In this document: positions 3,096 to 3,830 of the stretch, one piece after another
How the letters are laid out: each line of letters begins with the position of its first letter
How positions within the stretch are numbered: the first letter of the stretch is position 1
Virus record (IMG/VR): IMGVR_UViG_2541047166_000019
DNA length: 6,379 nt
Reading direction: 5' to 3' (one strand)
DNA from: a virus
Lineage: Duplodnaviria; Heunggongvirae; Uroviricota; Caudoviricetes
Notes under the pieces: model-generated
Told to the model about the DNA's origin: nothing
The model's database searches: none
The model's input: only the letters and a program-made list of their open reading frames with translations
Position numbers and translations under genes: made by a program

Positions 3096-3830
3096 ATGGA
3101 GACTGTTTTTGACGCACTGAAAGCGATGGGAAAAGCCACGTCGGTATAGCTGGCTGCGCGACTTGATATCAGTCGTGAAGAAGTACTGAACGAGCTGTGG
3201 GAACTGAAAAAGGCTGGCTTCGTTGATAAAAGCGTATACACCTGGCGTGTGGCTGATAACAACGTTCAGCAGGAACAGCCAGCGCCAGAAGAAACCACCA
3301 CGGCAACAGAAGCGAAAATCTCAGAGTGCGATTTAACCGCGACGATTGAACAACGCGGACCACAAACGGCGGATGAACTGGCTACGCTGTTCGGTACAAC
3401 ATCCCGCAAAGTTGCTTCAACGCTGGCAATGGCAATCAGCAAAGGTCGTCTGATTCGCGTAAACCAGAACGGTAAAATTCGTTACTGCATACCAGGTGAT
3501 AATTTACCAGCAGAGCCGAAAGTTGAATCGGTAGCGGAAACCGATGGTAAAGCCTTTCCTCAGCCAGCCGGTGTTGCGTTACCGGTACAGAAAGATGCAA
3601 CACAGGAAGATATTAAAACAGAAACTGTGGCGGACATTGTGCAGTCGCTGCCATCGTTTACTGCAACGCGAGAAGATGATTTGATTTTGCCATCGCTGCA
3701 TATGGCAAATCGCGAACTGCGTAGGGCGAAGAATCATGTCCAGAAGTGGGAGCGAGTCTGCGCCGCGCTGCGGGAGCTGAACAAGCACCGGGATATGGTT
3801 GCCGGGATTTGTCGGAAGTCCGGGCAATGA
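3096..3830 (+). pseudogene. Winged-helix (wHTH) protein gene interrupted by an in-frame amber codon at 3147..3149; about 244 codons if read through
   Basis: Strong RBS GGGAGGA (3084..3090), ATG 3096, 17 codons (METVFDALKAMGKATSV), TAG, then the same frame continues open to TGA 3828..3830. The stop falls inside a wHTH-type motif ([30 protein letters not shown]). The ORF track only reports the downstream part from GTG 3249. Confidence 0.55.

Follow-up and report, generated by a model that had tools for sequence, protein, structure and literature searches.

An amber codon in a DUF1627/YdaW gene of prophage Sp9: a young nonsense pseudogene in Escherichia coli O157:H7

The window analyzed here, a stretch of 6,379 nt of caudoviral DNA (IMG/VR record IMGVR_UViG_2541047166_000019), contains a gene with a strong ribosome-binding site whose reading frame is closed by an amber codon at its 18th position and then runs on in the same frame. 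Such a structure raises the question of whether the stop is a lesion, an artifact or a device that controls expression. A preliminary description, made from the sequence alone, had proposed a recent nonsense mutation, a laboratory-style amber allele or a gene expressed only in an amber-suppressor host. The data presented below point to the first of these. The feature is very probably a null allele, in which Glu18 became amber (GAG to TAG, G3147T), of the DUF1627/YdaW gene of the O157:H7 prophage Sp9. The amber copy is an ordinary young nonsense pseudogene, nearly fixed in its lineage, within a decaying prophage.

The frame that begins at ATG 3096 on the plus strand comprises 245 codons and has stops solely at codon 18 (TAG, 3147-3149) and codon 245 (TGA, 3828-3830). 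A Shine-Dalgarno sequence, GGGAGG (3084-3089, plus strand), lies upstream of the ATG with a 6-nt spacer, and the true start with the first 17 codons (3096-3146, plus strand; METVFDALKAMGKATSV) matches the N-terminus of full-length homologs exactly. Past the stop is the rest of the DUF1627/YdaW gene (3150-3830, plus strand), whose DNA is the same as that of the intact O55:H7 allele. The layout first described, with its strong ribosome-binding site, ATG 3096, 17 codons and TAG, therefore stands, except that the "227 more open codons" are 226 sense codons plus the TGA. The read-through translation matched 244-aa E. coli proteins from residue 1 onward (E = 2e-152), and these matches, together with that to Pfam DUF1627, indicate that the open stretch after the TAG is not due to chance. 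Since the same homologs cover both sides of the TAG, the two parts constitute one gene, as had been supposed.

The gene is located directly 3' of the gene for replication protein P, a lambda-P-type helicase loader (2601-3062, plus strand; annotated by PGAP on the identical TR01 sequence and recognized by PF06992 on an ortholog), from which it is separated by 33 nt. On its other side, a small ORF of 54 aa (3827-3991, plus strand; PHROG 30109) has an ATG that overlaps the TGA of the amber gene (ATGA) and a weak Shine-Dalgarno sequence of its own (-3.6 kcal/mol).

Positions 1-6035 of the window correspond, with one mismatch, to 1763667-1769701 of the Sakai chromosome (NC_002695.2), within the feature annotated as "prophage Sp9; lambda-like phage", which carries paa and has its start 4 nt past ompW. 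Many E. coli O157:H7 chromosomes match a 901-nt query around the amber gene at 100% identity. By these matches, the window is early-region DNA of Sp9 (PPompW), a defective lambdoid prophage of E. coli O157:H7. Its genes are arranged in the order cI-like repressor (minus strand), cro-like gene, YdaT-family gene, DnaT-like "O", lambda-type P and the amber gene, followed by the 54-codon ORF, a fimbrial pseudogene, paa/adfO and hok/sok. Sp9 belongs to the "defective prophage pool" of O157:H7 Sakai as one of its multiply defective lambdoid prophages, scored as defective in repressor/induction, recombination, portal and head functions, and yet it excises spontaneously and is packaged with the help of other prophages (Asadulghani et al., PMC2669165). 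The words "nonsense", "amber" and "stop codon" are absent from that study, and the lesion described here has no mention in it. The prophage repressor, a 135-aa HTH_3 protein (350-757, minus strand), is without a LexA-type peptidase domain, which agrees with the reported non-inducibility of Sp9 by mitomycin C (PMC2669165).

Other signs of decay are found nearby. The YdaT-family gene (1045-1596), undamaged both in the window and in Sakai, has a 1-nt deletion (position 1131) in TR01, where PGAP marks it as frameshifted, an example of continuing strain-specific decay of Sp9. Located 170 nt downstream of the amber gene, the fimbrial-protein pseudogene (3996-4529; PGAP) is frameshifted and has an internal stop; since the prophage copy of O55:H7 has this pseudogene too, it must be older than the amber mutation. 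The paa/adfO adhesin gene (4690-5448), of the AcfC family and with an SBP_bac_11 domain, is a virulence-associated "moron". It is also present within the GAG-bearing prophage copies that we examined, namely those of O55:H7, an O111-type contig and the LC567822 PPompW.

The read-through protein scores 308.8 bits against Pfam DUF1627 (PF07789; cut-off 28.1) over residues 84-236, and its residues 1-242 are covered by the PHROG 630 profile. Homologs in phage records are labelled ydaW or "YdaW family protein" of Rac-type prophages. As is expected of DUF1627/YdaW genes, the amber gene adjoins the O/P-type replication genes of a lambdoid prophage on their downstream side, so that it shares with the family (Rac ydaW; PHROG 630) both profile and position. 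The full-length layout of the family, a single ORF with a METV... wHTH segment followed by DUF1627, is present in the DNA but split by the TAG at codon 18, whereas the homologs are uninterrupted. For this reason, the Sp9 copy is a member of the family by descent and yet a pseudogene. In the literature, YdaW has been listed among uncharacterized putative transcription factors (PMC9308461), and plasmid-expressed K-12 ydaW was reported to block the toxicity of the retron-Sen2 RcaT (bioRxiv 10.1101/2020.06.22.160242). In the literature on DUF1627/YdaW we found no reported function and no experimental DNA-binding work on any member.

The fold of the intact protein was modelled with AF2 on a nearly identical intact protein (P0001), from a shallow alignment of 52 close relatives, 84-96% identical, so that confidence in the fold is moderate and, with a pTM of 0.28, the geometry between domains is unreliable. 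The model contains two winged helices with the order H1-S1-H2-H3-S2-S3 and a long C-terminal helix. The first domain is made up of helix 4-11, strand 13-15, helix 16-23, helix 27-40 and strand 49-51, and the second of helices 77-87, 92-99 and 103-115 and strands 120-124 and 127-131. In both winged helices the pLDDT is about 82-87; the C-terminal helix has values of about 69-85, and the disordered linkers between the three structured parts fall below 50. Among the Foldseek matches listed against the PDB, winged-helix proteins dominate (ScpB, MarR, ArsR, FeoC and AspA), with probabilities of 0.91-1.0 (mostly at least 0.97) and TM values of up to 0.83. That highest value, normalized by the target, was obtained for FeoC (4awx_B; rmsd 1.1 over 58 columns, the aligned query residues not being given by the tool).

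Domain 1 (residues 4-51; 3105-3248, plus strand) is indicated by AF2, Foldseek and sub-threshold Pfam/NCBIfam wHTH matches over residues 4-46. Domain 2, FeoC-like (residues 77-131; 3324-3488, plus strand), is indicated by AF2, Foldseek and a Pfam FeoC match over residues 80-126 (E = 0.0013). The long C-terminal helix (residues 192-241; 3669-3818, plus strand), which coincides with invariant alignment columns and with the conserved end of the DUF1627 model, is possibly a coiled-coil or oligomerization element. No curated wHTH family was matched above its threshold by sequence (HTH_20, 24.6 against 27; TrmB, 19.5 against 25.6; FeoC, 19.2 against 21; ArsR/SmtB, 23.5 against 55), and when the family profile was searched against PDB sequences, even the best match (FeoC, E = 0.41) was not significant; the fold assignment thus rests on the AF2 model and Foldseek. 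At the level of fold, both the wHTH-like segment said to span the stop and the second one said to follow it were borne out, the sequence support for the former being sub-threshold. Codon 18 falls within the second helix of domain 1 (16-23), which is the first helix of the helix-turn-helix pair. The intact protein of about 244 aa, with its two winged helices and long C-terminal helix, is presumed to be a DNA binder. It is alike in fold to the tandem winged-helix protein ScpB, with a Foldseek alignment of about 150 columns that equals the span of two winged-helix domains, and each of its domains is alike to the single wHTH regulators MarR, ArsR and FeoC. Nevertheless, it shares no significant sequence similarity with any of these proteins, and the resemblance is not one of membership, nor is the orientation of the domains modelled (pTM 0.28).

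The ancestral state of codon 18 can be read from close relatives of Sp9. The cognate prophage of O55:H7 TB182A differs by 8 mismatches and 1 gap over 6035 nt (99.85% identity over 6 kb) and has the same backbone and neighbors (P, the small ORF, the fimbrial pseudogene, paa and hokD). Its codon 18 is GAG instead of TAG and its gene is annotated as intact, with 244 aa (WP_000450692.1); within 3096-3830, the two DNAs differ at position 3147 alone. The TAG was found in Sakai, TR01 and a mosaic derivative (L006) described below, and GAG in O55:H7 TB182A, the O111-type contig (L002) and PPompW_132418 (LC567822). A 149-nt query with the GAG allele retrieved 248 records at 99% identity or more, and the matches listed include O111, O26, O103, O145 and O121, with none labelled O157; the PPompW of these other STEC has the same backbone, with GAG at codon 18.

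The proteins tell the same story. All 116 of the 116 close full-length homologs matched by motif have Glu at this position. In a more diverse alignment of 65 sequences, made up of P0001 and 64 representatives of 50%-identity clusters, the position is occupied by Glu in 51, Asp in four, Ala in three, Gln in two, and Val and Tyr in one each, with a gap in the remaining three; diverse homologs of about full length nearly all open with METV.DALKAMGKA. The homolog alignment that had been suggested as a check therefore answers in favor of Glu. From the Glu/GAG in orthologs and homologs, we infer that the ancestral codon was GAG and that the lesion is one G-to-T transversion, at 3147, in the codon that is now TAG (3147-3149, plus strand), as supported by the comparison of alleles and an exact 63-mer. 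Of the two ancestral codons that had been considered, CAG and GAG, only the latter holds, the orthologs having GAG. With GAG in the O55:H7, O111-type and LC567822 copies and Glu in the close homologs, the proposal of a recent nonsense mutation is confirmed, and the remainder of the gene, which shows no secondary damage and matches the O55:H7 allele exactly, indicates that the pseudogene is young.

The exact 63-mer centered on the TAG was found in 293 records, all complete genomes, while the O157 wzy gene was found in 306 genomes; about 13 wzy-O157 genomes are without the exact TAG 63-mer. The carriers listed are all O157:H7 or unlabelled Shiga-toxigenic strains, and come from cattle, food and patients. 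By these counts, the TAG allele appears to be close to fixed among the O157 serogroup genomes of the collection. Either hitch-hiking or selection could have brought it there.

What are the likely consequences of the lesion? Ribosomes would start at the strong ribosome-binding site and ATG 3096 and stop at the UAG after a peptide of 17 residues, and codons 3096-3146 are expected to be the sole part of the gene with efficient translation. For the remaining 226 codons, translation would depend on near-cognate read-through, which is rare, or on internal initiation, which is inefficient, so that the full-length protein is presumably absent, and both winged helices and the C-terminal helix would go unmade save for trace read-through. 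As the small ORF at 3827 overlaps the TGA as ATGA and its own Shine-Dalgarno sequence is weak, its translation is probably dependent on coupling, which an upstream amber would abolish; the ORF has probably lost this coupling. In addition, the roughly 680 untranslated bases possibly invite Rho-type polarity. The loss would be tolerated in O157:H7, and would have been neutral, since Sp9 is already defective and an intact paralog resides in another lambdoid prophage. Such a paralog, of 232 aa and with E18, was found after P in another lambdoid prophage of PV15-279, an O157:H7 strain with the TAG allele, and could supply the function in trans from elsewhere in the cell.

A different outcome would be expected if the part of the gene past the stop still gave rise to an N-terminally truncated functional protein, made up of the second winged helix and the C-terminal helix and initiated at CTG 3150 or GTG 3249, possibly by re-initiation. 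PGAP and Sakai annotations of such proteins do exist, the downstream frame is undamaged and equal to the intact O55:H7 allele, and CTG 3150 abuts the UAG, the geometry needed for termination-reinitiation. Nevertheless, no Shine-Dalgarno sequence was found at either of these internal in-frame starts, whose duplexes with the 16S 3' end reach only -3.0 (CTG 3150) and -0.9 kcal/mol (GTG 3249), against -10.3 kcal/mol at ATG 3096. CTG is, besides, a very poor initiator codon in E. coli. A scan of 2600-4800 for promoters and terminators did not stand out from shuffled sequence (4 sites where 2.6 were expected, and 2 where 2.5 were) and showed no internal promoter for a downstream product. The family speaks against a shortened form as well: nearly all near-full-length members checked keep the N-terminal domain, PHROG 630 spans residues 1-242, and the few database proteins that start with MADNN or MAARL resemble calls on the broken allele. 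Homologs that naturally start near GTG 3249, which the preliminary description had named as a case against its own reading, were not what we found, as the full-length homologs start with METV... and keep the N-terminal domain. Continued selection on a downstream product would also account for the lack of secondary lesions in the 681 nt past the stop, but a young pseudogene would show an undamaged frame anyway. Taken together, these results make a truncated functional product very unlikely.

We also give little credence to the idea that the amber allele has been selected and not merely tolerated, the switching off of the winged-helix protein of Sp9 altering the behavior of the prophage or of virulence genes in O157:H7. 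If so, the near-fixation of the allele since the split from O55:H7 would be explained. Possible targets are Sp9 replication or excision, the expression of the adjacent paa and an interplay with toxin/retron-type defence, the last being suggested by the report of K-12 ydaW as an RcaT blocker. In variants of this scenario, trace read-through could have been kept, or a dominant-negative C-terminal fragment could pair with paralogs via the long helix.

The stop could, in principle, be a regulatory device, with the amber read through either conditionally, by a suppressor tRNA, or by programmed or leaky read-through. Near-cognate tRNAs do read UAG at low frequency in wild-type E. coli, the strong ribosome-binding site has been kept and nearly every O157 genome still carries the allele. 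The in-frame stop is, however, confined to the O157 allele and the one mosaic derivative, the other relatives examined, orthologs and paralogs alike, having a sense codon, almost always GAG; a stop that is not conserved among relatives argues against programmed read-through. An Rfam scan of the window had sok (5637-5786) as its sole match and thus revealed no read-through-promoting RNA element near the TAG. As for suppressors, the window has no tRNA gene, the tRNAs of Sp9 have the anticodons CAT and TCT (reading Ile/Met and Arg) and those of another O157 prophage region (L008) have CAT, TCG and TCT. A query for the supE-type tRNA-Gln(CUA), validated by 5269 one-mismatch records that represent the wild type, had 155 exact matches, of which the 40 listed were without exception K-12 laboratory derivatives. 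The screen thus covered the supE-type tRNA-Gln(CUA) and the prophage tRNAs, and no cognate suppressor tRNA was found in the window, among the Sp9 tRNAs or among the supE-type matches listed. The earlier suggestion of an amber-suppressor host consequently loses its footing, and we consider regulated read-through extremely improbable.

There is a negligible prospect that the T at 3147 arose through an error of sequencing or assembly, or that the amber allele was introduced in a laboratory. Both ideas had been raised in the preliminary description, and both were rejected, given that the exact 63-mer recurs across 293 complete and independent assemblies, the listed strains span many laboratories, countries and sources (cattle, food and patients), and TAG stands in the reference strain Sakai as well.

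Two derivatives of the amber allele deserve mention. In one assembly (Logan ERR14980420; L005, 1696-2418), where the surroundings are those of the same paa prophage, an in-frame deletion of 12 nt (GTATAGCTGGCT) drops V17, the amber codon, L19 and A20 and re-opens a frame of 240 aa. The deletion may be a secondary "repair", albeit one with damage to helix 2, or else an assembly artifact. In the other (GCA_051684065.1; L006, 1128-1897), the 5' end with the TAG is fused to a different 3' part, 92% identical and 5 aa longer, and what follows is a DUF977 gene instead of the small ORF with paa. The presence of the TAG-bearing 5' end in a different downstream context suggests prophage-prophage recombination past the stop.

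A nonsense pseudogene in a decaying O157:H7 prophage is a textbook phenomenon of an already known kind, and has little weight for wider biology: it adds one more single-base pseudogene to a documented pool of defective O157:H7 prophages. The sequence of the amber gene has been in reference genomes since 2001 (Sakai and EDL933); as far as the literature could be searched, we found no explicit description of the Sp9 amber lesion. Its uses are more practical. G3147T separates the Sp9 of O157:H7 from the versions of the paa prophage in O55:H7 and non-O157 STEC and may thus serve as a marker, and the pseudogene provides a natural knock-out beside intact paralogs for the study of the DUF1627/YdaW family. 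There is also a lesson for annotation, as gene models of 226 and 193 aa hide the pseudogene and seed databases with artificial "N-terminally short" DUF1627 proteins.

The 226-aa model is that of PGAP (WP_077744273.1, from CTG 3150) and the 193-aa model that of Sakai (ECs_5720, from GTG 3249), and neither annotation marks a pseudogene. One of the proteins collected here, P0097, which starts with MAARL..., was confirmed as a gene call on the broken allele, its contig carrying the TAG; P0121, which starts with MADNN..., is probably another.

At its right end, the window includes a hok/sok-type type I toxin-antitoxin locus (5637-5939; Rfam sok, 103.9 bits at 5637-5786), in which a HokD-like ORF ending at 5939 (MKQQKAMLIALIVICLIVIVTALVTRKDLCEVRIRTGQTEVAVFTAYEPEE) is nested inside a longer Mok-like ORF (5727-5939). 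Beyond this locus the match to Sakai Sp9 ends at 6035, where about 430 nt with rem (ECs_1774) are replaced by 51 nt, and positions 6087-6379 are merely 85.7% identical to Sp9. Positions 5850-6379 have 98.7-98.9% identity to the hokD-downstream region of a different O157:H7 lambdoid prophage and were found exactly in no complete genome. From the pattern of these matches, the right end of the window would be either a recombinant variant of Sp9 or a chimeric draft contig.
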